From Pirellula staleyi DSM 6068 (GTDB taxonomy: Bacteria; Planctomycetota; Planctomycetia; Pirellulales; Pirellulaceae), in NCBI GenBank assembly GCA_000025185.1, contig CP001848.1:5400001-5432000 (forward strand): 32,000 nt of DNA, given 5' to 3'. This document shows positions 4,717 to 26,855 of this stretch, one piece after another; the first letter of the stretch is position 1; each line of letters opens with the position of its first letter. The position numbers were made by a program, and so were the translations under genes. The notes under the pieces were generated by a model. The model was not told the origin of the DNA. It worked only from the letters and a program-made list of their open reading frames with translations, and did no database searches.

Positions 4717-7374
4717 TCACGCTGCTGGCATCGACTCGATCGCGGCGAGCAACTTCGCGCGGATTTCTTCGAGCCGCTTTTCGTCGACGATCTTTGCCCC
4801 GCCGAGCGTGGTGACATAAAAAACGTCGACCACCTGATCGAGATGGGTGCCGATCTTCGCGATGCTCACCGACAACTCGAGTTCGAAGAGCGCGCGGGTG
4901 ATGGTGTAAAGCAGACCCATGCGGTCGTAGGCAAACACGGCAACGATGGTGAACCGCTCGGCAGTGTTGTTGTCGAACGAAACGCGCGTCGGTAGATGCT
5001 GAGCGCGCGAATCAGTCGCTTGCGAACGGTCTTGCCAGGTTCGACGAAATGTCGGCTCCCCTTGGCTCGCGGTCGTGAGTGCTTGCTCGAGTGCGCGGCA
5101 CACCTCTTGGCGACGATTCTCGGGTGGCGCTCCGCTGTAATCGCGGTCCTGCACATAAAACCGGTCGAGCACCAAACCATCGGCAAGCGTGTTGATCTCG
5201 GCCGAGAGAATCTGCTGACGCTGGCTGCTGAGTGCGCCGGTGAGCTTATGAAAAATGCCGGGAGTAATCTGGTCGTACGTCCCGACGGCATACTCGACCA
5301 CATTGCGCTCGGCCTGATATTTCGACCACGCCACCGCATCGCTCGGCGAGAGCTTGCGCAATCGCTCGAGCTGCGAAACCACTTCAGCCGCATTCCCTGC
5401 GTAGAGCGAACTCGAGGGCAACACTTCAATCTGTTTTTTCAGCCAAGCGCGATCGGAAAAATTCGCGGTCGCAGCCAGCAGTTCGTCCATGCGTGCGCGC
5501 CGGCGCGCGGTCATGGCGGTTGCCGGAGATTCACTCGACAGCAATCGCAGCGTGTGATGATACAGATCGGTGAGCAGCTCTTTCTTCCAATCGTTCAGCA
5601 CTCCGGGCCCCACCGCCGCGAGATCGGCGAGCGTGAGTACGTAGAGCATTTGCAGCAGCTCGGGAGAGCCGACTTCGACGGCGAATTGCACCACCACTTC
5701 ATCGTCGCTGATGTCGTGCTGCTGCGCCAGATGCGACATGCGTAGGTGCTTGTGCACGAGCAGCATCGTCGCTTCGGTCTCGTCTTTCGAGAGTCCCAAG
5801 CGATGCCCGGTTTGTTCGGCGAGACGGCGTCCCACTTCGCTGTGATCTTCGACATAGCCTTTGCCAAGATCGTGCAGCAGCATTGCGAGATGGAGCACCC
5901 GTTTTTGTTTGATTCCGCGATACACCTCGCCTGGCACCCCCCGATCATCTTTCAGCTTGGTGAGGTACTCGACCGCGCGCAGCGTATGCTCGTCGACGGT
6001 GTAGCGATGATAGGCGTTGAACTGCAGCAGCGAACGTGTGTGCGAAACAGCGGGGATGATTTGCTCGAGGACGCGGAGTTCGTGCAAGCGGCGGAGCAGT
6101 TCGCCGAGTCGCGCGGGCTGCGACAGGAGCGAGAGAAAGAGCTTCGAGATATCTTCGCGCAGTGGTTCGCTCGGATCGGCCGGAGGCATTTGCGAAACCG
6201 CTTCGCGAATGGTGCGCCAGGTGCCATGATCGATCCGCTTGTTGTAGAGGTTCGCAAGATCGACGAGCCGCAGCACTTCGCCCAGGTCGCGGCGCATTTT
6301 CGCGAGCCCTTGCTTGGTGCATTTGATGGTTCGTGGTCCGACGCGAAAATCCCCTTCGAACTGATGCGTGAGGAGCGGTTCGAGCAGCCACCACAAAGGA
6401 AACTGCGGGCGGCAGAGCTCTGCGAAACTGTTGACGATTTCGCGCACGTTGCTGGTGTGCTGAAAATACTCGCGCATGAACTGCTCGACCGGAAGCAGTC
6501 CCTCTTGCGGAGGTCGATTCTGCAATTCAGCCAGTCGCAGCTGCTCGGTTTTGTCGAGCAAATCGGCCGCTTTTCCCTGAGAAAAATGGAGATCGTTACG
6601 CAGCCAGAGCAGGAAGTCGCGCGCGGCGCGTAGTTTTTTGAGATCGTCCTTGAGCAGGTGGCCCGCTTGCTCGAGCAACTTGGGTTCGCTCTCGCCGAAG
6701 CGGCAGAAGCCGAGCCAGCGGACGAGCTGAATGTCGCGCAGTCCACCGCGCGAGCGCTTGACGTTGGGCTCGAGCAGGAAGACCGTTTCGCCAAACTCGG
6801 TTCGCTCTTCGCGACGTGCGTTTTCGATTCCGGGGAGGAGTTTTTTCCAGCGACGTTTGACGTACCAACGAAACTGATTATCAAACCGCTCGAAGAGTTC
6901 GGCGTTCCCCGCAATGCAGCGACTCTCGCTCAGCGAAGTGAGGACAGTGGTGTCTTGCATTGCCATCGAGATGGCCTGCGACACCGTGCGAGCGCTGAAA
7001 CCGACATCGAGACCAAGATCGTAGAGATGCTGCGAGAATTGGCGAATGATCGGGAGCGCCGCCTCTTCGCTGCGAATCGAGTGCAGCAGCATGACGTCGA
7101 CATCGCTGTAGGGCGCCATCTCGCGACGACCAAATCCGCTATGCGCGACGACGCAAAAATGTTGCTTGATTTTCTCGCGCTGATCTTCCGGGGCGTCGGC
7201 AATCACTGCGTTGAATAGCTCGACCACCATCCCTTCGAGCAGGTCGGTGAAGTGAGCGCACACTTGCACGCCAGGCGTTCCGCTGTTGTGCTGCTTACGT
7301 AGCTTCTCGCGCCCTTTGGCAAGTTTCTCGCGAGCTTCGACAACGGCGGGATGAATGCGGAGCGTGGTGGGCAT
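4717..7374 (-). CDS. glnD: [protein-PII] uridylyltransferase / uridylyl-removing enzyme
   Basis: About 885 aa. Nucleotidyltransferase region (HSGFGRREMAPYSDVDVMLL), HD domain (HLAMLLHDLGKG) and two C-terminal ACT-like repeats (FTIVAVFAYDRMGLLYTITRAL...). It lies directly downstream of a P-II gene. ATG at 7374 is preferred over the TTG at 7425 used by the track. Confidence 0.85.
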   Translation of the reverse strand: MPTTLRIHPAVVEAREKLAKGREKLRKQHNSGTPGVQVCAHFTDLLEGMVVELFNAVIADAPEDQREKIKQHFCVVAHSGFGRREMAPYSDVDVMLLHSIRSEEAALPIIRQFSQHLYDLGLDVGFSARTVSQAISMAMQDTTVLTSLSESRCIAGNAELFERFDNQFRWYVKRRWKKLLPGIENARREERTEFGETVFLLEPNVKRSRGGLRDIQLVRWLGFCRFGESEPKLLEQAGHLLKDDLKKLRAARDFLLWLRNDLHFSQGKAADLLDKTEQLRLAELQNRPPQEGLLPVEQFMREYFQHTSNVREIVNSFAELCRPQFPLWWLLEPLLTHQFEGDFRVGPRTIKCTKQGLAKMRRDLGEVLRLVDLANLYNKRIDHGTWRTIREAVSQMPPADPSEPLREDISKLFLSLLSQPARLGELLRRLHELRVLEQIIPAVSHTRSLLQFNAYHRYTVDEHTLRAVEYLTKLKDDRGVPGEVYRGIKQKRVLHLAMLLHDLGKGYVEDHSEVGRRLAEQTGHRLGLSKDETEATMLLVHKHLRMSHLAQQHDISDDEVVVQFAVEVGSPELLQMLYVLTLADLAAVGPGVLNDWKKELLTDLYHHTLRLLSSESPATAMTARRRARMDELLAATANFSDRAWLKKQIEVLPSSSLYAGNAAEVVSQLERLRKLSPSDAVAWSKYQAERNVVEYAVGTYDQITPGIFHKLTGALSSQRQQILSAEINTLADGLVLDRFYVQDRDYSGAPPENRRQEVCRALEQALTTASQGEPTFRRTWQDRSQATDSRAQHLPTRVSFDNNTAERFTIVAVFAYDRMGLLYTITRALFELELSVSIAKIGTHLDQVVDVFYVTTLGGAKIVDEKRLEEIRAKLLAAIESMPAA

Positions 7375-7668
7375 GATCGGCAACTGGTTGCTGGGCGGCA
7401 AGCAAAGAAGGGAGGCCGCTCGCAATTCGGAAGTTCGATCGGCGGCTGGTACGAAAGTGCGATGGTTGCGCGATCAGCCTGTGACCACTCGATCATCGCC
7501 AACAAGTGCCGCAGCAGAAGGAGCAGCAGCACGGAGAGATTGCTTACGCGTCGCCAGGAGACCAATCGCCGCTGGGTTCTACTTCACCAAGCCGCCTGCC
7601 CGGAAGAGATCCCCAGCTTCGTACGTTTTGTTGGGTTCGTCGTACGTGCGGGTGGTTCGCCTTCAGGA

Positions 7669-8025
<357 letters not shown>

Positions 8026-8697: not shown

Positions 8698-10179
8698 CTA
8701 CAGGAAGATGTAGCCTTCTTCGCCATGCTGGCTGAGGTCGAGACCTTGCAGTTCTTCGTCGCGACGGACACGCAGCCCCATCGTTAGGTCGAGCACTTTC
8801 AGCAGCACGAAGGTCACAATCGCCGAAACCACCCAGGTGACGAGGGTGGCGACAATCTGACCCACCAGCACCCGCGTTTCGCCATCGACCAGGCCGAGGG
8901 GCTTGCCGTTGCTGATGAGGGCGGTGTCGGCCACGTTGACCGTTGCGAACACGCCGGTCAGGATCGCGCCGAGCGTTCCACCCACGCCGTGAACCCCGAA
9001 GGCGTCGAGCGAGTCGTCGTAGCCAAAGGTGTGCTTCAGCTTGGTGCAAGCGAGGAAGCAGACAATGCCAGCGATGAAGCCCATCGCGAGGGCCGCCATC
9101 GGGCCAACAAAGCCAGCCGCTGGTGTAATGCAGACGAGTCCCGCCACTGCGCCCGAGCAAGCACCGAGCACGCTGGGCTTGCCACGCAGTACCCATTCCA
9201 TCAAGGCCCAGCTGAGCGTTCCGGCAGCAGCCGAGAAGTGCGTCACGGCAAACGCCGACGAAGTGAGGCCATCGCTGGCCAGTTCGCTACCGGCGTTGAA
9301 GCCGAACCATCCCACCCACAGCATCGCAGCGCCGAGCGTGGTGTAGGTGAGGTTGTGGGGAGGCATCGGATCACTGCCGTAGCCCAAGCGTTTGCCAATC
9401 ACCAGCGCACAAACAAGCGCCGAGACACCCGAGCTGATATGCACCACGGTGCCACCTGCAAAGTCGAGTGCGCCACCCATTAAGCCGGGCCCTGCCATCC
9501 AACCTTTGCCATCATCGTTGGGCTTGAGGAAGGCGAGCAAACCACCATCCCACACCATGTGGCATAGCGGGCAGTAGAGAATCGTGCCCCACAAAATCGA
9601 GAAGACCACCATCGTGCTGAACTTCATTCGTTCGGCAAAGGCACCGCAGATGAGGGCCGGGGTGATGATGAAAAACATCCCCTGGAAAAGCATGTGCGTC
9701 AGACGTGGAATCGCACCTTCCATCGGAGTTTCGACTTCGCCGGTTTCGGCATTGAAAGTCCGCTCGACGTTGCGCATCAGCACGTAGTCGAAGTTGCCGA
9801 TGTACGGGTTGTAGCCCTCTTCGCCGAGCGTTCCGCCGAACGAGAGCGAGTAGCCATAGAGAGCCCAAATCACCGTCATCAGCCCCATCAGGAAGATGCA
9901 TTGCATCATCACACCGAGGACATTCTTCTTACGGACCAAGCCGCTGTAGAACATCGCCAGCCCTGGTGCTGTCATAAAGAGCACGAGTGCTGCAGAAGTG
10001 AGCATCCAGGCGTTATGTCCGGCGAGCGCTGCACTCGACGCAGCACCTTCCACCGCCGTAACACGCTCCTCGATCGACGGCGGTGCCGACGATCCTTCTT
10101 GAGCCCATCCCACCGTTGCGCAGCCGAGCAGCAGCAGTGCGAGCCAACTACATTTCACCACCGATAGAGTACTAGACAT
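8698..10179 (-). CDS. amt: ammonium transporter (Amt family)
   Basis: About 493 aa and multi-TM. Amt signatures DFAGGTVVHISSG and GAILTGVFA. N-terminal signal peptide MSSTLSVVKCSWLALLLLGCATVGWAQ. ATG at 10179 with AAGGCG upstream is preferred over the TTG at 10197. Confidence 0.9.
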   Translation of the reverse strand: MSSTLSVVKCSWLALLLLGCATVGWAQEGSSAPPSIEERVTAVEGAASSAALAGHNAWMLTSAALVLFMTAPGLAMFYSGLVRKKNVLGVMMQCIFLMGLMTVIWALYGYSLSFGGTLGEEGYNPYIGNFDYVLMRNVERTFNAETGEVETPMEGAIPRLTHMLFQGMFFIITPALICGAFAERMKFSTMVVFSILWGTILYCPLCHMVWDGGLLAFLKPNDDGKGWMAGPGLMGGALDFAGGTVVHISSGVSALVCALVIGKRLGYGSDPMPPHNLTYTTLGAAMLWVGWFGFNAGSELASDGLTSSAFAVTHFSAAAGTLSWALMEWVLRGKPSVLGACSGAVAGLVCITPAAGFVGPMAALAMGFIAGIVCFLACTKLKHTFGYDDSLDAFGVHGVGGTLGAILTGVFATVNVADTALISNGKPLGLVDGETRVLVGQIVATLVTWVVSAIVTFVLLKVLDLTMGLRVRRDEELQGLDLSQHGEEGYIFL

Positions 10180-10494
10180 GAAAACGCCTTGAGCCAAAGA
10201 AGCCCGCGTCGAAACGCAATTTCTCGCGTCGAGCGCAAGCCAACAACGAACGAGACCTCGAGCCGCCTAGGTGGCCGCCTCGCCACACTCGATGTCTACT
10301 GAGCTGCGTCCGTCTGGCCATCGAAACGATACGATTGTTCGATGGTTGCCTGGTTCCAGACGAGCCAACTCTTGGGCAGATGTTGCGAAACAGACTACAA
10401 ACCACATGCCGGAAGAGCAAGTGACTCGGCGGGCTTACGGCTTTGTAATTCTGAAAAACTGGCCCAGCTTCGATTCGCTAGAGAGCTGCTGAAG

Positions 10495-11043
10495 CTAACG
10501 ATGCTGCCACGGCACATCGGCCACACTGGCGGAATAATTCGCATAGCGGGCGGCGACAAACAGATAGTCGCTCAATCGATTGAGGTAGCGAATGATCCAA
10601 GGGGAAATCTCCACCTGCTCCGCCGCCCCCAGATGCACCACCCAGCGCTCCGCCCGTCGACAAACGCCCCGGGCCACGTGCAAGGTCGCCGCCGCTTTCG
10701 TGCCACCTGGCAAAATGAAATTTCGGAGCGGCTGAAGGGGCTCTTCCAGGGCATCGATCGCCAGTTCGAGCTGCGTCACATCGGCGTCGCCCACCAAGGG
10801 CATATTTAGCTTTTGAGGCTCCGGCGTAGCTAGTTCCGCCCCCACCGAAAACAGGTCGGCTTGCACTTGTTCCAGCACATGCTCGATCAGCGGCGGCAGC
10901 GTTTCACACCGCGCAAGACCCAAAAACGCATTTAGCTCGTCGACCGTGCCGTAGGCCTCGATGCGTGCATTATCTTTGCGGACCCGAGGGCCACCAAAGA
11001 GCCCCGTTTCGCCTTCGTCACCCGTGCGGGTATAGATTTTCAT
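10495..11043 (-). CDS. cob(I)yrinic acid a,c-diamide adenosyltransferase, PduO type
   Basis: MKIYTRTGDEGETGLFGG N-terminus and the LN..LSDYLFV C-terminal helix are characteristic of PduO-type ATP:corrinoid adenosyltransferases. Internal ATG at 11043 chosen. Confidence 0.85.
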   Translation of the reverse strand: MKIYTRTGDEGETGLFGGPRVRKDNARIEAYGTVDELNAFLGLARCETLPPLIEHVLEQVQADLFSVGAELATPEPQKLNMPLVGDADVTQLELAIDALEEPLQPLRNFILPGGTKAAATLHVARGVCRRAERWVVHLGAAEQVEISPWIIRYLNRLSDYLFVAARYANYSASVADVPWQHR

Positions 11044-11234
11044 TCCACTCCACCGTGGCACATAATGTGCCTAGCCGACTCGCCTGAACCACTCGAACGT
11101 CCCGTATAATACCGGGGAGTCGAGTCCCTCTCGATGCCCCGTCCAGGGCCGCATGCTTGCGTCGTGCAACCTGGCCCACCTCATCCACTCCCTCACCACC
11201 ACACTTCCTATCCACTTTCGTGAAGGATCTGCTG

Positions 11235-12317
11235 ATGAAAAATCGCCTACTTTCCTTGGTAACCCTCCTGGTCGGCCTGACCAGCGTCCATACGTCGGTC
11301 GTGGCGCAGCCTCCCGGAGTGGCGAGCAGCGGTCCTTCGATCGAGGCCAAAACACTCGGCAATATCAAGCAGCTGACCAGCGGGTTCGTGAAAGCGGGGG
11401 AAGGCTATTTCTCCCCCGATGGCAAGCAAATCGTCTATCAAGCTCAGCCGCTCGACTACCCGTTCTATCAAATCTTCCGGCAGTCGCTCGACGGTGGCCG
11501 CCCTTTGCAAATCAGCACCGGCCGGGGTCGCACCACCTGCAGCTATTTTTCGATCGACGGAACGAAGATCCTGTTCGCTTCGAGCCACCTCGATCCGGCC
11601 ATCGACGCCACCGAAGCGGCCGAGCGTAAGCAGCAGGAAGAAGACAAGAAGTCGGGGGTTCGTCGCCGCTACAAATGGGATTTCGATCCTTACACCGAGA
11701 TGTTCGAGGCTGATCTCGACGGGAAGATTTTGAAGCAGCTGACCAATGAGAAGGGGTACGACGCGGAAGGGGCCTACTCGAAGGATGGCAAACTGATCGC
11801 CTTTTGCAGCGACCGCGATGGGGATGCCGACCTCTATGTGATGAACAGCGACGGCACCGGCGTTCGCCAACTCACCAATGCCCCTGGCTACGATGGTGGT
11901 CCGTTCATTTCGCCCGATGGAAAGTGGGTGGTGTTCCGTAGCGATCGGAAAGAAAAAGATATGCTGCAGCTGTTTGTAATCGGCATCGATGGCAAAAATG
12001 AAACTCAGCTGACCGACACCAACGGTGTGAACTGGGGGCCATATTGGCACCCGAGCGAGCCGATCATCATTTGGTCGGGGGCAGACCATAGCGACCCAAC
12101 GGCACGTCCGAACTACGACCTGTGGGCTGCTCGCTACGAAATCGCCAGCGATGGGAAGTTCAAACTCGGCACCACGCAGCGCGTCACCGACTTCGCCGGG
12201 GCAGATGTTCTGCCGGTCTTCTCCCCTGACGGAAAAAAACTGATGTGGACCAGCACCCGCAGCGACGATCATAGCAGTCAGCTTTTCCTGGCCGACTTTC
12301 TCCTCGAGGTGAAATAG
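11235..12317 (+). CDS. TolB-like WD40/PD40 beta-propeller repeat protein, secreted
   Basis: Signal peptide MKNRLLSLVTLLVGLTSVHTSVVAQ after a GAAGGA RBS. Repeated PD40 motifs: SPDGKQIVYQA, SIDGTKILFAS, SKDGKLIAFCSDRDGDADLYVMNSDG, SPDGKWVVFRSDR, SPDGKKLMWTSTR. Confidence 0.75.
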   Translation: MKNRLLSLVTLLVGLTSVHTSVVAQPPGVASSGPSIEAKTLGNIKQLTSGFVKAGEGYFSPDGKQIVYQAQPLDYPFYQIFRQSLDGGRPLQISTGRGRTTCSYFSIDGTKILFASSHLDPAIDATEAAERKQQEEDKKSGVRRRYKWDFDPYTEMFEADLDGKILKQLTNEKGYDAEGAYSKDGKLIAFCSDRDGDADLYVMNSDGTGVRQLTNAPGYDGGPFISPDGKWVVFRSDRKEKDMLQLFVIGIDGKNETQLTDTNGVNWGPYWHPSEPIIIWSGADHSDPTARPNYDLWAARYEIASDGKFKLGTTQRVTDFAGADVLPVFSPDGKKLMWTSTRSDDHSSQLFLADFLLEVK

Positions 12318-12395
12318 CCTGCGCAAGCTGCCGTAGCAGTTGGCACCCCTGCGAGTGCCTTTGATTTCGCGTGCAATTCATGGAAGAATTTGGAT

Positions 12396-12839
12396 ATGGC
12401 CAAGCATCCCATAGCACGCTCGTGTGGCGTTCTCGTCCTCCGCGATAAGTTGAGCCAGAAGAAGAAAACCGTCGCGCGCGAGTTTCTGCTAATGCGCCAC
12501 AAAGATCGCTGGGATCTTCCCAAAGGGCATGTCGACCTGGGAGAGACCGACCACGACTGTGCGATGCGCGAACTTTGGGAAGAGACCGGAATAGAGCGCG
12601 ACGATATCGCTATCGATCCCACGTTTCGCTGGGAAACTCGCTACGACGTGAAGTGGGATGGCAAGCCGGTCGAGAAGACCCTCGTCATCTTTTTGGGACT
12701 GCTCACGCGTGAAGTAAAAATCAAACCGACCGAGCATGCTGGCTTCGAGTGGTTTCCCTGGAACCCGCCGCATGCCGTTCAAAAGCAAACGATCGACGCG
12801 CTGCTGGCAGCAGCGGAAAAGCATCTCGCGGCGCAATAG
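12396..12839 (+). CDS. NUDIX hydrolase
   Basis: Nudix box GHVDLGETDHDCAMRELWEETGI (G-x5-E-x7-REUxEExGU). ATG at 12396; the track start at 12390 is TTG. Convergent with the operon below. Confidence 0.8.
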   Translation: MAKHPIARSCGVLVLRDKLSQKKKTVAREFLLMRHKDRWDLPKGHVDLGETDHDCAMRELWEETGIERDDIAIDPTFRWETRYDVKWDGKPVEKTLVIFLGLLTREVKIKPTEHAGFEWFPWNPPHAVQKQTIDALLAAAEKHLAAQ

Positions 12840-12868: not shown

Positions 12869-13699
12869 TCAGGCCGCCCCGCGACCTCCGCCCACATTGC
12901 GGCAGCGTTTTGAGCCACAGCCATAGGTGGCGCAGCTTCCAAAATAGCTCCAGCAATCGCGATGATGGCTCGTTTTGCAGGCGGTGCATTGCACGAGCGC
13001 TCCGCTCAATTCGTCGCTGCAGACAGGGCAGGCGGTTTTCACGTCGACGAGCACACGCTTCTCGGAAATGATTTCGATTCCTGAATTGCACGCACCTAGC
13101 GCGGCTTCATAGAGGTCGGCAGCGGCGTCGATAAACGCACTCACAATCTCGGCGCTGCCACTGCCACGCGGCTTGGTGATCGCCAAAAGGCCGCGCATCC
13201 AAGTCACTTCGAGATCGCGATAGCTGTACATCGAGCTCCGTTCGTGAAGTTTGTACAGCCTCACAATCTGATGCTGCACCGAAGGCGTAAGCAACTCGCG
13301 AACCGCGCGCTCGTCTTCTCCGCTGATCATAAACAGGTCGTCGAACACAAAATTACCGACCTGGATATCCTGCATCCCCATCAGCTTGCCAAGCTTTTTC
13401 ATCGCATCTTCGACTTGCAACTGACACCGAAAACGAGCTTCGGGCCACGGCAAGCGAATCACCATGTAGTCGACCTTACCGCGGCGCACGTACTCCAGTT
13501 CACCTTGGGTCGAACCGACTTGAATGGAGAGCTTGGTATTGCTGAAAAAGCCCCCGGCGTAGAGAAGCTTGCCACGATACTTGCGCACCACCTGCTGCAG
13601 GTTGGCTTGCGCTTGCTGCTGGCTCAAGGTCGCGACCACAAAAATGATAATTATGACCGCAATGAAGAGAAAAAAGCCGAAGACTGGTCCGTCGTTCAT
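12869..13699 (-). CDS. membrane-anchored RING-like zinc-finger protein (putative E3), paralogue B
   Basis: 276 aa. N-terminal TM helix FGFFLFIAVIIIIFVVATL. C-terminal CPVCSDELSGALVQCTACKTSHHRDCWSYFGSCATYGCG follows C-x2-C-x10-C-x2-C-x4-H-x2-C-x6-C-x4-C, coded about 12917-13030. The ATG overlaps the upstream stop (ATGA). Confidence 0.7.
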   Translation of the reverse strand: MNDGPVFGFFLFIAVIIIIFVVATLSQQQAQANLQQVVRKYRGKLLYAGGFFSNTKLSIQVGSTQGELEYVRRGKVDYMVIRLPWPEARFRCQLQVEDAMKKLGKLMGMQDIQVGNFVFDDLFMISGEDERAVRELLTPSVQHQIVRLYKLHERSSMYSYRDLEVTWMRGLLAITKPRGSGSAEIVSAFIDAAADLYEAALGACNSGIEIISEKRVLVDVKTACPVCSDELSGALVQCTACKTSHHRDCWSYFGSCATYGCGSKRCRNVGGGRGAA

Positions 13700-14649
13700 G
13701 GCTGACTCTCCACGGGAGGCCCGGAGTCGCTATTTTCGGTCGGTTGTTCCTTCTGGGGCGACAGCTGCGCGATGCGGGGGGCGACCGCCCGGGTTTCTCC
13801 ACAGCCAAACGTGCTGCAAGCACCGGCATATTCCCAGCAGTCGCGATGATAGGGAGTTTTGCACTTCACGCAGCTCACGATGTCGGTCTCCAAAGTTTCT
13901 CCGCACACCACGCATCTTGCGCCGTCGATCACCACCGCATCGCCGGGCGCGACGAATTCAATCCCTTCACTCGAGGTGATGAGCAGCTGATCGTACAGCC
14001 CCACGGCAATGTCGGTGAACTCGATGAGATCGGTGGGGCGGGTCGACAACCATCGCTTGCGAATCGTGAGCATGGTGCGAGCGCAATTGACTTCCGCCCA
14101 CGAACGTTCAGGGAAACGGACCAGCTGCTCGATCGCCGCGCGCACCCCGGTGGAAAGGGACGCCGTGGCATCGCTGGGAGTTCGGGCAATCGTCCGAAAC
14201 TGCTGGTCAAACTCTGGGTCACCCGAGAGGACTTCGAGCAGCGGTGGGGGCAACTCCACATGCGCATGGCTGGCATGTCGCGGAAGGACATCGAGACGCG
14301 GATAAACGCGTGGCAACGTCATGCTGATCTCGAGGACCGGCAGCGAATCGCTCGTGCCATAAGCGGCAACCGTGACACTGACCCAGCTCTCGCCATAGCG
14401 AAAGGTGGTGCGCGGGGCCGAGCCCCAGCTCGACGGCTGAAAGTTACCCCGGCGATTCTCGGCCAAGCGCGCCAGCTGCGCAGGCCAAGGGGCTTTCGAC
14501 GTCCCGACCGCCAGATAGATTGCGAGCCAGACGGCGGTGGCGATCAGGATCAAACCAGCCAGTAAGGCGCACGTCACAGCAACTTCCTTCGGACGGTTGC
14601 TCTTCGAGGAGCCCGACGCACGTTCCTCGGCCAGGGAGCAAGCTGCCAC
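13696..14649 (-). CDS. membrane-anchored RING-like zinc-finger protein (putative E3), paralogue A
   Basis: 317 aa. TM helix CALLAGLILIATAVWLAIYLAV. C-terminal CVVCGETLETDIVSCVKCKTPYHRDCWEYAGACSTFGCG has ligand spacing identical to paralogue B, coded about 13801-13914. GTG start 15 nt after the upstream stop. Confidence 0.7.
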   Translation of the reverse strand: MAACSLAEERASGSSKSNRPKEVAVTCALLAGLILIATAVWLAIYLAVGTSKAPWPAQLARLAENRRGNFQPSSWGSAPRTTFRYGESWVSVTVAAYGTSDSLPVLEISMTLPRVYPRLDVLPRHASHAHVELPPPLLEVLSGDPEFDQQFRTIARTPSDATASLSTGVRAAIEQLVRFPERSWAEVNCARTMLTIRKRWLSTRPTDLIEFTDIAVGLYDQLLITSSEGIEFVAPGDAVVIDGARCVVCGETLETDIVSCVKCKTPYHRDCWEYAGACSTFGCGETRAVAPRIAQLSPQKEQPTENSDSGPPVESQP

Positions 14650-14664
14650 CTCGCCAAACTGCCG

Positions 14665-15348
14665 TTATTCAGGACCAATGTACAGCACATCGCCATCGCC
14701 ACTGGCCGCAGGACGATTCGCGGGGCGGATCGCGCGTCGCTCGGGGAGTTTGGGAGAGGGAGTATTCTCGTCGATGAACATCACTTCGCTGCTCGCAGCA
14801 CCACCGAGGGTCGTCGGCTGACCAGCGACGCGGCTGTAGCGGACCACGTTGCTCGAGACCACTTGGGTTTGCCCCACCAGCGGGCGATTGTCGAGCGGCA
14901 AGGTGTAAGTCGTTTGCTTCTCGAGCCAGTTGCGGGCGGTGAAGTCGACAACGCGATCTTCGTTGACGTAAGCAAGTCGAATCGCGTCCCACAGACGTTC
15001 GCAAACAACATCGAGCGACAGGGCAGGGGACCAATTGAGCCCTAGATCTCCCAGGTTTACGAATCCGCTGAACGAAACATTCGGATGCACAATCGGCGTA
15101 AGCCAACGGACATCAGGCGGACTCTCGGGATAGGAAAATGGCAAACGGATTTCCACCTCGTGCAGTTCGCTGATCGCCATTTCGCTCGACATCGACGTGC
15201 CGCGCGCGAGCCCCTTGCCACGAAAGCGAAGCATGAACCGTTCGACCGGTTCTCCGGTGGCTTCCACTTCAAACACGCGGCTCTGCTCGGCCAGCTCACG
15301 AAGCTTTTTCACATCGCCCGTAATTCGGCTCGTTCGATCTTCGCTCAC
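14665..15348 (-). CDS. E2-fold (UBC-like) protein lacking the catalytic Cys, UEV-like
   Basis: 227 aa and collinear with the E2 at 18779-19546. HPN falls at residues 88-90 in both proteins. Here the sequence is IVHPNVSFSGFVNLG, with Asn98 (AAC, 15055-15057) where the paralogue has Cys98. GTG start overlaps the upstream stop (GTGA). Confidence 0.75.
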   Translation of the reverse strand: MSEDRTSRITGDVKKLRELAEQSRVFEVEATGEPVERFMLRFRGKGLARGTSMSSEMAISELHEVEIRLPFSYPESPPDVRWLTPIVHPNVSFSGFVNLGDLGLNWSPALSLDVVCERLWDAIRLAYVNEDRVVDFTARNWLEKQTTYTLPLDNRPLVGQTQVVSSNVVRYSRVAGQPTTLGGAASSEVMFIDENTPSPKLPERRAIRPANRPAASGDGDVLYIGPE

Positions 15349-16907
15349 GCATCACCTCCTTCACGCTCACTCGAGGTCGAGCGATTTTCCGTACCTGCCA
15401 CTGCATCCTTCGCACTCGGAGGCGAAGACTTACTCAGCACGTTCTTACTCGGTTTCGTAGCAGTGCTCGACTTGTCGTCCGAAATCGTTGCCACCGATTC
15501 AGTATGACCACTCGAGCCCCCGTTTGGCGAGCGGCGGACGAAAAAGGTGACAATCGCAGCCAAAAGCCCCCCACCACCGAGCAACGACAACCCGATGATG
15601 GCCTGCTTTCGGCTGAACAGCGTCGTCTCGGCTTCTCCCTCCGTTTCGGCAGGTTTCTCAGCCGCTGCTACGGTGGCAGGTGTCGTGCTGGCTTTCAGCT
15701 CCCGGAGGGCGATTTCGAGTTCCGTTTTTTTCGTTTCCAGCTGCTCCACGGTGTCGGCGAGGCTGGCGATTCGTTCCTCGCTCTCGACGCGGAGCGCTTC
15801 GAGCTTCTCGACCGTCGCCTGGTTACTCGCTTGCAGTTCGCTGATCATCACTCGCTGCGACTCGCTGATCTCGCGCAGCGATTCGGTTTGATCGTACTTG
15901 GCTTGCAGCCGCTCGACAAAACCGGGCTCGCTGCCGCGCAGCTCTCGCATCATGTCGTCGTAGAACTCGGCGCGAGCCTCGTCGCGCGATTGGCTGCGAC
16001 TTTGCTTTACCGTTTCATCGACACGCGCCGTGAGCGCTTGAGTAACGTCGATCAAATCTTTGCGAGTGACAGCGGGCGCCGTATTCGCGGGAGCTGTCTC
16101 CGCCACGGGAGGCGAGGCGATCTTCCACACCAGAATCGCCAACAGAACCAGCTGCGCAAACATACCGACCTGCCCAGCGAGCTGCTGCCAAACTGGTGGA
16201 GGGGGAGGAGGAGGCGTGGTATGCAAATGGACGTGCGAAGTTCCGGAAATCTGCTTCGATGTGCTGCTCATCAGCTGTATTTCCTCGGGGGCGGTGAGGG
16301 AAGCAACAAACTGCTCCAGCTCTTCCGCGCGGTGCCTGCTCGTCATCAAAAAAAAGCCGCCGGTCTGCTGCGTACGTGGCTTGCGACCGGTGGTCCACTG
16401 AAAGAACCCACGATCGCGCCGACAGGGATCGATCACGAGCGCCACATCGAGCGGCTTATTAAAAAAATTGTCGCAGATAAAGAGATCGAGCCCCGATAAA
16501 AACACACCCCAATCGGGATGCGTGTGATACCAGCCCACCATCTGTAGTTCGGCGGGAAATTCCTCGCGCGTCCGCGTGATCTGCTCCCACGTGTCGTGCG
16601 TGAATTTGAAACTTCCACGGGTGCTTTCGTAGTGCGCAGCGCGGAGACTATCGGTCACCATCACGAACGGCTGTTGCTGCTCGTCTTCACAAAAATAGCC
16701 GAGCATCACGCCACCCAGCTCGACCGTTTTGTCGCTCACGGCATGCAGTTCCATGTCGCGCGCCGCATCGAGGTCGACGTAGATGGGGAGCTCACCTTCG
16801 CGCAGCTTCCCCACGGCCTGCACTGTCAGTTGCCGATTCTGATCGGGACGCAAACGCCGAGCGTGCGAATCTTCTTTCAGCTCACCAAAATCGATGTCGG
16901 AGCTCAC
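15345..16907 (-). CDS. JAB/MPN+ (JAMM) metalloprotease with two TM helices flanking a coiled coil
   Basis: 520 aa. N-terminal JAB domain: E63 in TVELGG and GWYHTHPDWGVFLSGLD (H-x-H-x7-S-x2-D, about 16485-16526). A P7 run precedes TM1 (about aa 244-264). A heptad-like Glu/Leu/Gln-rich segment covers about aa 285-405. TM2 is IIGLSLLGGGGLLAAIVTFFV, followed by RR and a Ser-rich tail. GTG start overlaps the E1 stop. Confidence 0.8.
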   Translation of the reverse strand: MSSDIDFGELKEDSHARRLRPDQNRQLTVQAVGKLREGELPIYVDLDAARDMELHAVSDKTVELGGVMLGYFCEDEQQQPFVMVTDSLRAAHYESTRGSFKFTHDTWEQITRTREEFPAELQMVGWYHTHPDWGVFLSGLDLFICDNFFNKPLDVALVIDPCRRDRGFFQWTTGRKPRTQQTGGFFLMTSRHRAEELEQFVASLTAPEEIQLMSSTSKQISGTSHVHLHTTPPPPPPPVWQQLAGQVGMFAQLVLLAILVWKIASPPVAETAPANTAPAVTRKDLIDVTQALTARVDETVKQSRSQSRDEARAEFYDDMMRELRGSEPGFVERLQAKYDQTESLREISESQRVMISELQASNQATVEKLEALRVESEERIASLADTVEQLETKKTELEIALRELKASTTPATVAAAEKPAETEGEAETTLFSRKQAIIGLSLLGGGGLLAAIVTFFVRRSPNGGSSGHTESVATISDDKSSTATKPSKNVLSKSSPPSAKDAVAGTENRSTSSEREGGDA

Positions 16908-18121
16908 TGAGCAGGCTCCTTTTTCTCGCGCGACGCAGCATCGGCCGGGAGTTTCACGAGCACACGATCGCGATCGGCAGCGAGCAAAAAGAACCCTTCC
17001 TCGCCCGTTGCTTCGCGCGTGATGCGAACAATGTCGTACAGAGGAATCCCGAGCGTCTTCAGGGGCCGATCGGACCAGGGGCTCGACTCGTCAATCGCAT
17101 GCGTGCGATCGACCGACATTACTTCGCGGCATTCGCAAACGGCATCGCGAAACGTGACGAGTGGACTCGCGCGCACGATCTCGCGGACCGCTCCGCACTG
17201 GGCGCACTTCATTCCCGTGACCAAATCGCGATCGAGGTGCAACGTGAGTGGACCTTCCCCCGGCAGATGCGCGGCCGCTGCCGTAAACAGATCTTTCGCC
17301 GTCGCAGTTTCCGACGACAGCGGAAGGTCGATCGCAGTGGGATAAGTGTCGTGACTCAGGCAGTCTTCTTTGCGCTGATAGCGCGTGGTGTAGAACTGAT
17401 TGGTGAGACCGCTATAGACGTACGCTTCGCCCCCTTTGACCGGCAAACCGTGCATCACCTTGAGCGCTTCCTGCACTTCAATCGCGGCCATAATCGACGC
17501 ACTGGTCGGCGCTGTCGGCACTTTACCAGCAAGCAAATCCTCGCGCGGCAAAAGAGGGCAGCTATAGCGCAAGTTGATCAGTTTGTAGTCGTTTTCGGTC
17601 ATCCCGCATTCGTAGCAGGGGCTCTCGGGTGGCGTAAACACCTTCACCACGCCGCTGATCTCTTGAATGCCGGCGTCGATCCACGGGGTGCTCGTTTTCC
17701 AGCAGCAGCGATTGACCCACAGCCTCGCCTCGCGATTGTCGAGGCAGCCAATCGCCACGTCGATATCGCGAAAGAGCCCCAGCCCCAGTTCCGTCATCAC
17801 ATTTCCGCGAATGGGTGTGATGACCACATCGGGATTGATCTCGCTGGCCATTTCCGCAGCAACATGCGCTTTACTTTGTCCTTCGTGACGAGCACGGAAC
17901 AGCACGCTGCGTGTGAGGTTCGAGTTTTCGATCGTGTCGAGGTCGATCACAATCAGATGGCCCACCCCCACCATCACCAGGTTCTTAATCACTTCGTTAC
18001 CGAGCGCCCCAGCGCCAACCACCAGCACTCGCGAACGCTGCAGCTTCGCTTGATCCCACCAGCCAATGAGTCGCAGGCGACTATAGCGGTCGTCTTGATC
18101 GACAATCAGTGGCTCGGCCAT
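16904..18121 (-). CDS. E1-like ubiquitin-activating enzyme (ThiF/MoeB/HesA adenylation superfamily)
   Basis: 405 aa. RYSRLRLIGWWDQAKL, VLVVGAGALGNEVIKNL (GxGxxG), VIDLDTIENSNLTRSVLF, CLDNREAR, CYEC (C169/C172), RYSCPLL (C188), CAQC (C306/C309) and CEC. AGGAGAG RBS 9 nt before the ATG. Confidence 0.85.
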   Translation of the reverse strand: MAEPLIVDQDDRYSRLRLIGWWDQAKLQRSRVLVVGAGALGNEVIKNLVMVGVGHLIVIDLDTIENSNLTRSVLFRARHEGQSKAHVAAEMASEINPDVVITPIRGNVMTELGLGLFRDIDVAIGCLDNREARLWVNRCCWKTSTPWIDAGIQEISGVVKVFTPPESPCYECGMTENDYKLINLRYSCPLLPREDLLAGKVPTAPTSASIMAAIEVQEALKVMHGLPVKGGEAYVYSGLTNQFYTTRYQRKEDCLSHDTYPTAIDLPLSSETATAKDLFTAAAAHLPGEGPLTLHLDRDLVTGMKCAQCGAVREIVRASPLVTFRDAVCECREVMSVDRTHAIDESSPWSDRPLKTLGIPLYDIVRITREATGEEGFFLLAADRDRVLVKLPADAASREKKEPAQ

Positions 18122-18182
18122 CAGTGGGCTCTCCTGGAAACATAGGGGGCGTGATTAGAAATCGGTCGTAGCGCCGTGAGGA

Positions 18183-18719
18183 TCAGGCCAAACGGCCGGT
18201 CACAAAACCACAAGGCTCGATCTGCCGATCACGCCAGTGAAAGAACCCGAGTTCCTTGCGGCGCGGATCGACCACCATAGCGACATGCCACGGCTGGGGG
18301 AAAAAATTGTGGTGGATGAACTTGTCGTAGCTCGACAAAAAAATGCCGAAGTCGGGATGCGTATGATGCCAGCCGACGATGGAAAGTCCGGGATATTTCA
18401 GCTCGGCTTCGCGATGAAGCTCGGCCCATGTATCGTGCGTAAAGACAAGCGATGCTGCCCGCGACTTGGCTTCCGCAGCGGGATGAAAATGCTTGATCAC
18501 GACCAGCATCGGCTTGGTGCCATAGACGCCGCCGAGCAAGAACCCGCCACGCTCGCGACGCAAATCTTGCTCGGAAAACGCGATGATTTCATCGAGCACA
18601 TTCTGGGGCAACACAATCGCCGCGCTCGACAAATAGACCGTCCCGACCGATCGCGGAGACTGCAAATCTCCGAGAGAAAACGTGTCGGTAGTCGGTACGC
18701 TGGGCATGGGTTGTAGCAA
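18183..18719 (-). CDS. JAB/MPN+ (JAMM) metalloprotease, soluble paralogue
   Basis: 178 aa (TTG at 18719; alternative ATG at 18707). E in RRERGG and GWHHTHPDFGIFLSSYD (H-x-H-x7-S-x2-D). Strongly similar to the N-terminal domain of 15345-16907 (FTHDTW..., NFF, DP.R...GFF.W). Confidence 0.8.
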   Translation of the reverse strand: MLQPMPSVPTTDTFSLGDLQSPRSVGTVYLSSAAIVLPQNVLDEIIAFSEQDLRRERGGFLLGGVYGTKPMLVVIKHFHPAAEAKSRAASLVFTHDTWAELHREAELKYPGLSIVGWHHTHPDFGIFLSSYDKFIHHNFFPQPWHVAMVVDPRRKELGFFHWRDRQIEPCGFVTGRLA

Positions 18720-18778
18720 AACTTAAGGTCGTAGCGGATGGAAGAAAACAGGCACTCGCGCGCCCCGCGAGGCCGGGA

Positions 18779-19546
18779 CTAAACGAACTCAATCCCGTCA
18801 TCAGCTGGCGGCGACGGAGGACGCGACGACTCTGCGCGGCGCGGCGGCGGAACAGGAGGTCGCGTTGGCGCTGCGCGACGTGGCGGGAACGGCCCCGCCA
18901 CCGGCGCTGGGCCCGCTGGCTCAGCATCGTCGATGAAGAACAGTCCCTCTTCCTCGGCTGCAGGGACAATCTCGGCCTGCACGGCAGAAGAGGTCGGAGC
19001 CGCTGCGGCGGGTCGCTGCGCGGTCGATGGAGGAGGCTGATGGGTGGCAGCTTCGCGCGAGGCAACCAGATCGCGCAGCGGACGCGGATCGAGTGGCAAG
19101 ATGCCGGGACCTTGCGATTTCGACCAGAGAGCCGCTTCGCGATTGTAAGGGCTGTTGGGGTCGTAGTTCTCGTAGCGAATCATGTCCCACAGCATCGTGC
19201 AGAGCTCGTCGAGCATCAAACTTGGGACCCAGTGCTTTCCATATCCTCCCAGGCAGACAATGCCGCCAGCCGAGATATTGGGGTGAAACACCGGGGATTT
19301 CCACGAGAGTTCGGGCATCGAGCGGGGGTATGAAGCCCCCAGACGCACATGCACTTCGTGAACTGCCAGCAGACGGGGCGCTTGTGCAGGGTCGGGACGA
19401 TACGCCCCACGACCATGAAATCGCAGCACGTAATATTCCGGCGGATTGCCGGTCGCTTCAAAGCGAAAAATGCTGCTGTCAGCGGCCAGTTGTGTTAGCA
19501 AGCGATGATCGCTAGCCAGTCGACGTTGACGAGGAGATTCGCGCAC
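18779..19546 (-). CDS. E2-like ubiquitin-conjugating enzyme with catalytic Cys
   Basis: 255 aa. UBC-core signature YPRSMPELSWKSPVFHPNISAGGIVCLG (HPN then Cys98, TGC at 19253-19255). A roughly 95-aa Pro/Ala-rich tail ends DDGIEFV. GTG start with GGAGGGAG RBS. Confidence 0.85.
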   Translation of the reverse strand: MRESPRQRRLASDHRLLTQLAADSSIFRFEATGNPPEYYVLRFHGRGAYRPDPAQAPRLLAVHEVHVRLGASYPRSMPELSWKSPVFHPNISAGGIVCLGGYGKHWVPSLMLDELCTMLWDMIRYENYDPNSPYNREAALWSKSQGPGILPLDPRPLRDLVASREAATHQPPPSTAQRPAAAAPTSSAVQAEIVPAAEEEGLFFIDDAEPAGPAPVAGPFPPRRAAPTRPPVPPPRRAESSRPPSPPADDGIEFV

Positions 19547-19657: not shown

Positions 19658-19945
19658 TTAACCCGCGACGATCTCGGGATAAACAATCAAATGATGTCCA
19701 TCCTGAACACCGGCAGCGGGAAGCGTTTGATCTTCCTGCAAACGGCGGCCACCCTCTTTATGATCGAGGCTGTAGCTCATCGGCTGACCATCAGGGCCCA
19801 TCACCGGCAGATTCATCTTGGTGATGATGTTGGGCAGAATGCGTTTGGCAGTCACGGTGTCGGCGATCACCGCCTCGACACTCTTGGCGCCAGTCTGATC
19901 GAGAAACGTAACTCGTGTACCTTTTCGCTCCGTTTGTTCACTCAC
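19658..19945 (-). CDS. ubiquitin-like (beta-grasp) small protein ending in Gly
   Basis: 95 aa. GTG start preceded by AAGGGAG. The C-terminal half GRRLQEDQTLPAAGVQDGHHLIVYPEIVAG-stop parallels ubiquitin [30 protein letters not shown]. First gene of the operon. The fold assignment is inferred, not computed. Confidence 0.7.
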   Translation of the reverse strand: MSEQTERKGTRVTFLDQTGAKSVEAVIADTVTAKRILPNIITKMNLPVMGPDGQPMSYSLDHKEGGRRLQEDQTLPAAGVQDGHHLIVYPEIVAG

Positions 19946-25477: not shown

Positions 25478-26173
25478 CTACTGATAGTCGCAATCCATGC
25501 CGAGCTGCATCTTGAGTTCTTCAAATTTTTGGTAGTACTTATCGCTCGAGCTGTGGACATGCTCGGCTTCAGTAATGAACTTCAGCGACTCGTCGCACTT
25601 CACATTGAAGCGACGCATGACCGCTTCGTAGTCGGTGAGTGGACTGCCGTAGACGATCAGCAGTTTGTGCTCGTCGAATTGCACTTCCTGCGGGATCGCT
25701 GGGTTGAGCACGGCAATGCCGGTGCATCCATCGTTCATCAGCAGGTCTTCAAAATCCCAGAGGGTGCTTTTGAGGACCGGCATGTCGATATGTTCGCGAT
25801 AGAGGTCGGTGTGACCGGCGGCATCGCGATGGTGACTCGTTTCCAGGACCACATCGACCTCGTTACCGAGGGGCTCGATGAGCTCGAGGAACAGATCGAA
25901 GAGAACTTCGCGGCTGGCCGATGCCATAAGCACTGGCACTTTGGCTCGCGACTCTTCGTCTTGGTAGTGGTCGTGGCGATAGCCCTGTTGGGGAACCACC
26001 TTCAGGTCGTAGCTTGGTCGAATGGCGTCGGTGAGCATGAACTTTCCATAGCGCTCAACACCGAGGTGGGTTTCGAGCTCTTCCTCCGAAAGATGTTCGA
26101 AGCTGCTGCTTGTGGCAGCGGCGGCGGCACCTTCGTGGAAAACACCTCGAAAAAATCGTTTCAGGAAGCCCAT
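25478..26173 (-). CDS. hypothetical protein
   Basis: 231 aa from MGFLKRFFRG, with a GAGGA RBS 6 nt upstream. Globular-looking composition. No motif I recognise. Confidence 0.55.
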   Translation of the reverse strand: MGFLKRFFRGVFHEGAAAAATSSSFEHLSEEELETHLGVERYGKFMLTDAIRPSYDLKVVPQQGYRHDHYQDEESRAKVPVLMASASREVLFDLFLELIEPLGNEVDVVLETSHHRDAAGHTDLYREHIDMPVLKSTLWDFEDLLMNDGCTGIAVLNPAIPQEVQFDEHKLLIVYGSPLTDYEAVMRRFNVKCDESLKFITEAEHVHSSSDKYYQKFEELKMQLGMDCDYQ

Positions 26174-26855
26174 CGGAGTCCTCAGTCGCTTGCTCGCGAG
26201 TGGTTTGAATTGGCAGATGTGTGACAACAAAAACTGGCTGCACACCCCAAACGTAGGTCACGGTTTTGTTAACTTCGCGGAGCGGAAAAAACCTTGCCAA
26301 ATCGCTTGTTTTTCCAGCCCGACTAATCGTTACAACCGCAACCCAGCTACCACCTGTGCATGCACCCGCCGTTTGGCTGGTCGTGCCCAAGATGCGGAAC
26401 TCTACCACCCTGTGCTGGCAATGCCAGCAAAGTGTCTACTAGCAGAGAACAATTGCGTGAACTTGCCGTCTGTTGTTCCGAGCGGCGAAAATTTGCCGCG
26501 CAAACGGCTCCGCATTCAAGCTGCGAAGAGTCGGGTCGTAGCGAGAGAATTCGTCGTGAGGTGGGCGACCCTGCCAGCAAGCCAGCGATGCGAATCCCTG
26601 TCCCAAGATTCGCGCCGACAACAGGGGAGCAGAGAGTTCAAAATCGGCCATCGGCCGACGAACCAATCGCGATCCAAGAACCGCTATACTGCCGCCGAGC
26701 GTATCGACCACCTTTCCGCCTCGAGTTGCTGCTTCCTGAACAAGCACTTCGAGAGGATCTGTGGCACCAAACGCCAGACGGCAAGCGCACCTTTGACGCG
26801 CGATCTCCACCGTTGTCTCGAGATCCCTACGCATCAGCTCCCCCGAGCGTTCGCT

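Follow-up and report, generated by a model that had tools for sequence, protein, structure and literature searches.

A Cysteine-Less E2 Paralogue Kept Under Purifying Selection in a Ubiquitin-Like Conjugation Operon of Pirellula staleyi

Organization of the Operon

An operon for the conjugation of a ubiquitin-like protein (Ubl) was examined in Pirellula staleyi DSM 6068, with emphasis on a cysteine-less E2 paralogue (E2N) that is encoded together with an active-type E2 (E2C). All coordinates refer to the window, i.e., the whole 32,000-nucleotide (nt) stretch that was analysed (contig CP001848.1, positions 5,400,001 to 5,432,000 of the forward strand). According to the open reading frame (ORF) list and the Pfam matches, the operon consists of eight consecutive minus-strand genes, which encode, from 5' to 3', a YukD-like Ubl, E2C, a small soluble JAB protease (JABs), an E1, a JAB protein with predicted transmembrane (TM) helices (JABtm), E2N, and two RING proteins (RING1 and RING2). 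The genes overlapped by 4 nt at the E1/JABtm, JABtm/E2N, and RING1/RING2 boundaries. The joint presence of Ubl, E1, E2, JAB, and Prok-RING_1 in the Pfam matches identifies the locus as a Prok-RING_1-type conjugation operon. Three paralogue pairs were found in the operon, with identities of 41% for E2C/E2N, 45% for JABs/JABtm, and 32% for RING1/RING2. A catalytic residue was lost in the E2C/E2N pair only; catalytic residues or zinc ligands are intact in the two JABs and the two RINGs.

E2C (18779..19546, minus strand) is a protein of 255 amino acids (aa) with a UBC fold. E2N (14665..15348, minus strand) has 227 aa, with a UBC core at residues 1-160 and a disordered tail at residues 161-227 (14668-14877) in the AlphaFold2 (AF2) model. 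The Pfam family UQ_con (PF00179) matched E2N with 44.9 bits and E2C with 45.2 bits, both above the curated cut-off of 27, which places E2N in the UBC superfamily; it is 100% identical to an NCBI protein of the strain that is annotated as 'ubiquitin-conjugating protein E2'. In BLASTP, 62 of 153 aligned residues were identical (41%, one gap, E=2e-38), well outside what chance would give, and the alignment covered residues 5-157 of one protein and 6-157 of the other. The original prediction, which was made from the sequence, had described the two proteins as collinear through about residue 157, and this description was borne out, as were the shared blocks that it quoted: F.(V/F)EATG.P, LRF.G.G, HEV.(I/V)RL..SYP, and LPLD.RPL at residues 150-157. 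The HPN motif likewise lies at residues 88-90 in both proteins (15079-15087 in E2N and 19277-19285 in E2C, minus strand). At residue 98, E2C has a Cys (GGIVCLG, codon TGC at 19253-19255), whereas E2N has an Asn (SGFVNLG, codon AAC at 15055-15057), again as predicted. The collinearity extends past residue 157, where each disordered tail contains a pair of short acidic-hydrophobic motifs in matching order; the tail of E2C (18782-19075, minus strand) is Pro-rich.

Conservation and Selection of E2N

The conservation of both proteins was evaluated in the 120 best homologues each of E2N and E2C, in 150 representatives at 50% identity, and in 87 fetched loci with 81 E2N genes. A genome-contig scan with the single E2N protein gave one locus, and a metagenome scan with an alignment query made up for this. 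The residue at position 98 was Asn in 104 of the 120 best E2N homologues and otherwise Asp (7), Ser (3), His (3), Thr (2), or Arg (1), but never Cys. In the same sequences, H88, P89, S92, S94, G95, and W106 were invariant, and N90 was present in 104/120. Cys98 was found in all 120 of the best E2C homologues and in 26 of the 27 E2C-labelled ORFs in the loci, the remaining one being an alignment gap. The 150 representatives comprised 60 with Cys, 87 without, and 3 truncated at the site. The non-Cys residues at position 98 among the representatives and loci included D, S, N, R, T, Q, H, E, A, K, G, and others. None of the 81 E2N genes encoded a Cys at this position, and HPN was kept in 76 of them and replaced by HPS in 5. 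Hence, the active-site position varies freely in E2N while HPN and the fold are kept, and no alternative nucleophile is conserved at position 98.

All E2N genes that lay off the contig ends were intact (68/68, 218-347 aa). The ratio of nonsynonymous to synonymous substitution rates (dN/dS) against the closest relative (L005) was 0.085 for E2N and 0.078 for E2C, values that are rough because dS exceeded 1 and was saturated. The mean pairwise distance was 0.81 for E2N, 0.48 for E2C, and 1.54 for RING1; that is, E2N evolved faster than E2C and far slower than RING1. In a neighbour-joining tree, a pure Cys-less clade of 80 sequences was separated from a pure Cys clade of 58. This grouping indicates that the cysteine was lost a single time and long ago. 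Since that loss, the E2-fold paralogue E2N has persisted under purifying selection as a pseudo-enzyme in a chromosomal operon of Pirellulales planctomycetes. The original prediction had held that the Cys-less copy was maintained rather than decaying. The orthologous operons agreed with it: the copy was neither missing nor degenerating there, the genes were intact, and dN/dS was approximately 0.09.

Fold, Family Relations, and Surfaces of E2N

The fold of E2N was predicted with AF2 from a 92-sequence alignment. The predicted local distance difference test (pLDDT) values of the core were 94-98 for residues 10-150, and the tail was disordered. In Foldseek searches against the PDB, the best matches of the model were active E2s (Ubc13, Cdc34, Ube2S, UbcH5, and UbcH7), with a probability of 1.00 to Ubc13, Cdc34, UbcH5, and UbcH7, and no ubiquitin E2 variant (UEV) was present among the top 50 matches. 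A joint E2N and E2C profile matched E2-25K, Ubc13, and UbcH7 chains in the PDB at approximately 1e-9. With a hidden Markov model (HMM) of E2N only, the scores were 29.7 bits for Ubc13, 25.4 bits for UbcH5b, and 18.1 bits for Mms2, the eukaryotic sequences having been entered by hand.

E2C carries a Cys after HPN and eight residues upstream of the conserved Trp, as active E2s do. E2N lacks this Cys but keeps HPN, and it shares with the UEVs a UBC fold without the catalytic Cys. It does not share their descent, as its nearest relative is the operon's own E2C and not a UEV. Because the profile and structure matches favour active E2s over Mms2 and the UEVs, E2N is an independently inactivated E2 and not an orthologue of the eukaryotic UEVs. 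On this point the likeness to a eukaryotic UEV drawn in the original prediction did not hold, considering that HPN is retained, that the E2N HMM prefers active E2s to Mms2, and that the top 50 Foldseek matches were all active E2s.

The surfaces of the two paralogues were compared by per-position conservation in the 120 E2N and 120 E2C homologues. The MAFFT alignment with eukaryotic E2s was unreliable beyond helix 2, and the HMMER alignment was used for that region. In E2C, R75 (aligned with UbcH5b F62) and M76 were invariant, together with V107, P108, S109, and L110 (aligned with UbcH5b S94-P95-A96-L97). These positions fall in the loops L1 and L2, which are the canonical E3/E1-contact loops. 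Residues N127, D129, S132, P133, Y134, and E137 of the helix 2-helix 3 loop and the N-terminal residues S3, P4, and R7 were also invariant in E2C. Most of these L1, L2, helix 2-helix 3 loop, and N-terminal positions were relaxed in E2N. Both families kept R5, R8, L9, H63, W82, HPN, W106, L119/W120/D121/R124, and P151-x-D153-x-R155. E2N had invariant residues of its own, namely R37, R49, P70, Y71, D79, R81, T84, F93, F96, L104, E117, R118, and K139.

Motifs in the Disordered Tails

The tails of both paralogues contained an acidic-hydrophobic motif, (E/D)-(V/I)-x-F-I-D, and a C-terminal motif, D-(V/I)-x-(F/Y)-I. A motif occurred within the last 12 residues in 119/120 E2N and 111/120 E2C homologues, whereas shuffled tails gave 0-1. 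Three motifs were distinguished in the E2N tail, all on the minus strand. Motif A, SNVVRY (residues 166-171, 14836..14853), is kept in E2N orthologues. Motif B is EVMFIDENTP (residues 188-197, 14758..14787), and its counterpart in E2C is GLFFIDDAEP. Motif C, DVLYIGPE (residues 220-227, 14668..14691), is the C-terminal one, which was found by the motif search in homologue tails versus shuffled tails.

The single E2 of the simple operons described below carries GDNVIRL, EILIIDENTP, and DDLLIIE in its tail, which correspond to the three motifs of E2N. Across E2N, E2C, and the simple-operon E2, the extreme C-terminal motif takes the form D-[VI]-x-[FYI]-I-[GE]. Since the simple-operon E2 bears the same three motifs, E2N appears to have retained the ancestral tail, and the partner of the motifs should be a core component, that is, the Ubl, the E1, or a JAB. 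Judging from their sequence, a hydrophobic strand flanked by acids, the motifs look like SUMO-interacting motifs (SIMs) or strand-addition docking motifs. The Ubl would be the preferred candidate partner because the motifs are SIM-like and the Ubl is extremely conserved.

Synteny and the Simple Operons

The order Ubl-E2C-JAB-E1-JABtm-E2N-RING(-RING) recurred at dozens of loci in Anatilimnocola, other Pirellulaceae, and many metagenomic contigs, and it was the same in members only about 35% identical to E2N (L088 and L089). Where sufficient flanking DNA was available, a Cys-containing E2 lay upstream in 19/19 loci, JABtm lay immediately upstream of E2N in 37/38, and a RING gene lay immediately downstream in 35/42. 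The pairing of a Cys-less copy with an active E2 in one operon, on which the original prediction was built, was therefore seen at every one of these 19 loci. By its gene context, E2N is associated with the membrane-anchored JAB and not with E2C. In two Anatilimnocola genomes (L002 and L007), Ubl-E2C-JAB-E1-JABtm-E2N was kept with no adjacent RING at the locus.

A simple four-gene operon, E1-Ubl-E2(Cys)-JAB, was present at five loci (L078, L081, L085, L086, and L087), with a Ubl approximately 80% identical. E2N, the TM-bearing JAB, and the RING were all absent together from these five operons. The four-gene operon probably represents the ancestral state. Because E2N, the TM-JAB, and the RINGs are missing from it, E2N can be regarded as an accessory of the membrane arm that is not required to conjugate the Ubl. 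Furthermore, JABs/JABtm and E2C/E2N have diverged to a similar degree, which fits a history in which an E2 and a JAB gene were duplicated together.

A Rosetta-stone search among long homologues gave no informative fusion of a Cys-less E2. Two long proteins were recorded in the course of it, each of which is either real or an assembly artefact: P0306 (309 aa, a metagenome representative), a YukD-E2(Cys) fusion, and P0258 (299 aa, Cys-less), with a TerB/DUF533-like C-terminal region.

Partner Proteins and Flanking Genes

The Ubl (19658..19945, minus strand; Pfam YukD E=1.5e-16) is a YukD-like, beta-grasp protein of 95 aa with the end IVYPEIVAG. It was compared across 24 loci (the window, L002-L007, L023, L026, L029, L042, L044, L047, L053, L055, L056, L069, L077-L079, L081, and L085-L087), where it was about 85-95% identical while E2N was only 35-55% identical, making it the most conserved protein of the system. 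A Ubl search gave 1068 clusters, of which the best 120 were all 83-96% identical. The Ubl is thus conserved about as tightly as ubiquitin, or almost so. The IVYPEIVAG end was always present, and K21, K43, and K63 were invariant. Processing of a precursor is suggested, since 1-6 extra residues follow AG in 10 of the 24 loci.

The E1 (16904..18121, minus strand) has a ThiF-type adenylation domain (Pfam ThiF E=7.7e-56) and a C-terminal domain. Its cysteines C169/C172, C188, and C254 were invariant, and C306/C309 and C329/C331 were near-invariant. JABs (18183..18719, minus strand) is a small soluble JAB/MPN+ metalloprotease matched by Pfam JAB and Prok-JAB, in which E56, H119, H121, S129, and D132 were kept in 27/27 sequences. 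JABtm (15345..16907, minus strand; Pfam JAB) has 520 aa, with H128, H130, S138, and D141 kept in 44/46. The H-x-H...S..D ligands are hence retained in both JAB families, and the eight zinc ligands in both RING families. According to hydropathy, JABtm has an N-terminal, cytosolic JAB domain and then two TM helices, predicted at residues 242-269 and 435-458, which bracket a coiled-coil segment of approximately 165 aa. This segment is predicted to lie outside the cytoplasm, an unusual layout for a JAMM protease. RING1 (13696..14649, minus strand) consists of an N-terminal TM helix (residues 20-52), a cytosolic domain, and a C4HC3 Prok-RING_1 finger (Pfam E=9.1e-13). RING2 (12869..13699, minus strand) consists of an N-terminal TM helix, a DUF3137-like region, and a Prok-RING_1 finger (Pfam Prok-RING_1 E=1.7e-12 and DUF3137).

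The operon is flanked by genes for the nitrogen-regulation proteins GlnD (4717-7425), PII (7669-8022), and Amt (8698-10197). Genes for a cobalamin adenosyltransferase (10495-11061), a protein with PD40 repeats (11157-12317), and a hydrolase of the NUDIX type (12390-12839) lie there as well. Subsets of these six also flank the operon in divergent genomes (L004, L005, and L088). The recurrence of the same chromosomal neighbours suggests that the operon is stable in position and vertically inherited, and not a mobile island. A transglutaminase-core (papain-like) protein is encoded at 26112-28493 (plus strand) of the window, a few kilobases from the operon, with a DUF1501 / PSCyt-PSD1 pair between them. 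A transglutaminase-core gene also lies directly upstream of the Ubl gene in L004 (3795-5063) and L006 (3694-5439). It is possible that this protein also takes part in the system.

Possible Roles of E2N

E2N is probably a non-catalytic helper. In the proposed mechanism, the Ubl would be relayed covalently from the E1, with Cys188 as the candidate residue, to Cys98 of E2C and then to targets. The two membrane-tethered RING proteins would aid the transfer from E2C, and the two JAB proteases would process and remove the Ubl. E2N would not carry the Ubl covalently; it would bind the Ubl or Ubl-modified proteins noncovalently, through the groove around the dead site (HPN and SFSGF) and through the three tail motifs. 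We infer that E2N serves as a Ubl- and conjugate-binding adaptor of the membrane JAB/RING arm, in which its partners would be the upstream two-TM JAB with or without the downstream RINGs. There it would either bring conjugates to the JAB or keep an acceptor close to E2C~Ubl. This adaptor role is our leading proposal, and it is put forward tentatively, with somewhat less than an even chance of being correct. In its favour are the position of E2N beside JABtm, which persists at loci with no adjacent RING, the joint absence of E2N, the TM-bearing JAB, and the RING from the simple operons, the relaxation in E2N of surfaces typical of the active enzyme, the retained tail motifs, and the strong conservation of the Ubl.

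Several points weigh against the adaptor role. The mirror-tree partial correlations over 20 loci were 0.53 for E2N-E2C, 0.47 for E2N-JABs, and 0.44 for E2N-JABtm; they do not tell the partners apart and do not favour JABtm over E2C or JABs. The adjacency of E2N and JABtm may simply reflect their duplication history, and the tail motifs could bind the E1 or a JAB instead of the Ubl. Moreover, the loss of conservation in L1 and L2 was read from an alignment to UbcH5b and not from the structure of a complex, and the physical interactions assigned to E2N are likewise inferred ones.

In eukaryotes, Cys-less E2-fold proteins act as specificity factors, with Mms2/Uev1a for K63 chains and Tsg101 for ESCRT. 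It is possible, if doubtful, that E2N is a bacterial counterpart of such variants that arose apart from the UEVs and reads or positions the Ubl. In that role, it would either dictate the chains made by E2C or gate a membrane writer/eraser machine of three paralogue pairs. If this were true, the partnership of an E2 with a pseudo-E2 would be a convergent and general solution in ubiquitin-type signalling, with a genetically simple bacterial model.

The chain-building version of this idea is a pair of the Ubc13/Mms2 kind, as raised in the original prediction, in which an E2N-E2C heterodimer would position the acceptor Ubl while E2C~Ubl builds chains of defined linkage. Active and inactive UBC paralogues do co-occur in 19/19 loci, the invariant lysines of the Ubl could be chain sites, and in both structure and profile searches E2N matched Ubc13 best, by a narrow margin. 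Of the E2N pairs, E2N-E2C also has the highest mirror-tree value, although the values cannot be told apart. However, in the simple operons a Ubl of this family is conjugated with a single E2 in the absence of E2N, and E2N adjoins JABtm, not E2C, in 37/38 loci. Beyond the shared fold, E2N is unrelated to the UEVs, and it keeps HPN, which human Mms2, in the sequence used here, lacks at the aligned positions. A heterodimer of this kind is therefore considered unlikely.

The surface comparison bears on a role as decoy or throttle, which we regard as rather improbable. An unchargeable E2N would fill the E1, JAB, or tail-motif site of active E2s and thereby tune the conjugation flux. The retention of R5, R8, and L9 in helix 1, of the P151/D153/R155 segment, and of all tail motifs of the active E2 would suit such a function. 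The relaxation of S3, P4, R7, L1, and L2, on the other hand, argues against faithful mimicry of the E1/E3 face. In addition, the invariants that are E2N's own (R37, R49, Y71, R81, F93, F96, E117, R118, and K139 among them) suggest a gained function and not pure mimicry.

Catalysis through a non-cysteine nucleophile, in the manner of the Bub oxyester, was given very little probability. A precedent exists in the Cys-less BubB, as the E2-like domain of such operons was once called inactive; HPN is kept in E2N, and S92 and S94 are invariant among its close homologues. Nevertheless, no nucleophile is conserved at the Cys position, where N, R, D, H, Q, K, G, A, and other residues occur. S92 is invariant in E2C as well, and the more divergent Cys-less proteins have P, A, G, or F in place of the two serines. 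The constraint that E2C shows on the helix 2-helix 3 loop is relaxed in E2N, and the E1 retains conserved cysteines, as a thioester pathway would lead one to expect. On these sequence grounds, residual catalysis by E2N appears unlikely. Finally, E2N as a decaying, functionless duplicate, to which its faster evolution relative to E2C might point, has a negligible probability; the pseudogene reading was rejected on the low dN/dS and the 68/68 intact genes, and the confident predicted fold and the old, diverse clade with conserved synteny speak against decay as well.

Once the partner and role of E2N are determined, the operon would provide an operon-sized model of how a pseudo-E2 gains a function, and it would reveal the membrane role of the tagging system.

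Comparison with Known Systems

In PADLOC, no match was obtained for the Ubl, either E2, or either RING, and the JAB and E1 showed just generic similarity (weak matches to BilC at 1.8e-4 and BilD at 8.7e-8). All NCBIfam matches of the operon proteins were below the cut-offs. An anti-phage system (Bil, CBASS Cap2/Cap3, or Bub/6E) was rejected because no PADLOC system matched and the neighbourhood is conserved across divergent genomes.

The locus belongs to the class of Prok-RING_1 operons, with the same YukD-like Ubl, E1, UQ_con-type E2, JAB, and Prok-RING_1. Prokaryotic Ubl/E1/E2/JAB/RING operons were described by Burroughs, Iyer and Aravind (2011, Mol Biosyst), as cited in PMC7159879 and PMC3417536, and E2 enzymes in Planctomycetes were reported by Arcas et al. 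(2013), as cited in PMC8382908. Operons of a related kind occur in Actinobacteria, Planctomycetes, and Acidobacteria according to the review PMC4197634. Literature searches gave no experimental work on this planctomycete system. The value of the present results is tempered by this earlier computational description of the operon class and of planctomycete E2s, and the Cys-less paralogue, its monophyly, or its association with the TM-JAB may already have been noted. The mechanism of E2N is, moreover, a proposal, and its resemblance to a Ubc13/UEV pair is unproven.

The Ub/E1/E2/small-RING/Rpn11 operon of Caldiarchaeum subterraneum is reported to have been reconstituted in vitro (PMC5654768). In both cases, a minimal eukaryote-like cascade that includes a RING E3 and a JAMM protease is encoded by a single prokaryotic operon. 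According to PMC4197634, the Caldiarchaeum operon has one copy per component, whereas E2, JAB, and RING are each duplicated in Pirellula. The Pirellula locus differs further in one dead E2, three membrane-anchored proteins, and a YukD-like modifier.

In 2006, the E2-like domains of 6E/Bub operons were described as inactive (PMC1779556); later work showed that the E2 BubB acts via oxyester intermediates, for which Ser333 and His335 are needed (PMC11601596). BubB resembles E2N as a bacterial E2-fold protein without the catalytic cysteine in a Ubl operon. However, BubB is catalytic through Ser333/His335 and is paired with a Cys-less E1, whereas E2N has no conserved nucleophile and stands beside a Cys-E2 and an E1 with conserved cysteines.

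Complexes of the JAMM protease BRCC36 contain the UEV-domain protein BRCC45/BRE. BRCC45/BRE and E2N can be compared as non-catalytic E2-fold proteins in the company of a JAMM/MPN+ deubiquitinase, by analogy only and with no sequence relationship.

A parallel in kind is offered by the UEVs, namely Mms2/Uev1a with Ubc13 and Tsg101/Vps23; UEV domains of the Tsg101/Vps23 type are reported in Asgard archaea too (PMC9192718). Like E2N, the eukaryotic UEVs have a Cys-less UBC fold that is kept by selection alongside an active E2 and a ubiquitin-like modifier. In the present case, a chromosomal Ubl/E1/E2/RING/JAB system of bacteria has independently fixed a pseudo-E2 and kept it across a deeply diverged clade (approximately 35% identity). 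Unlike the UEVs, E2N has an independent origin, retains HPN and the helices of its active paralogue, bears a disordered tail with three putative docking motifs, and is encoded beside a membrane JAB protease.

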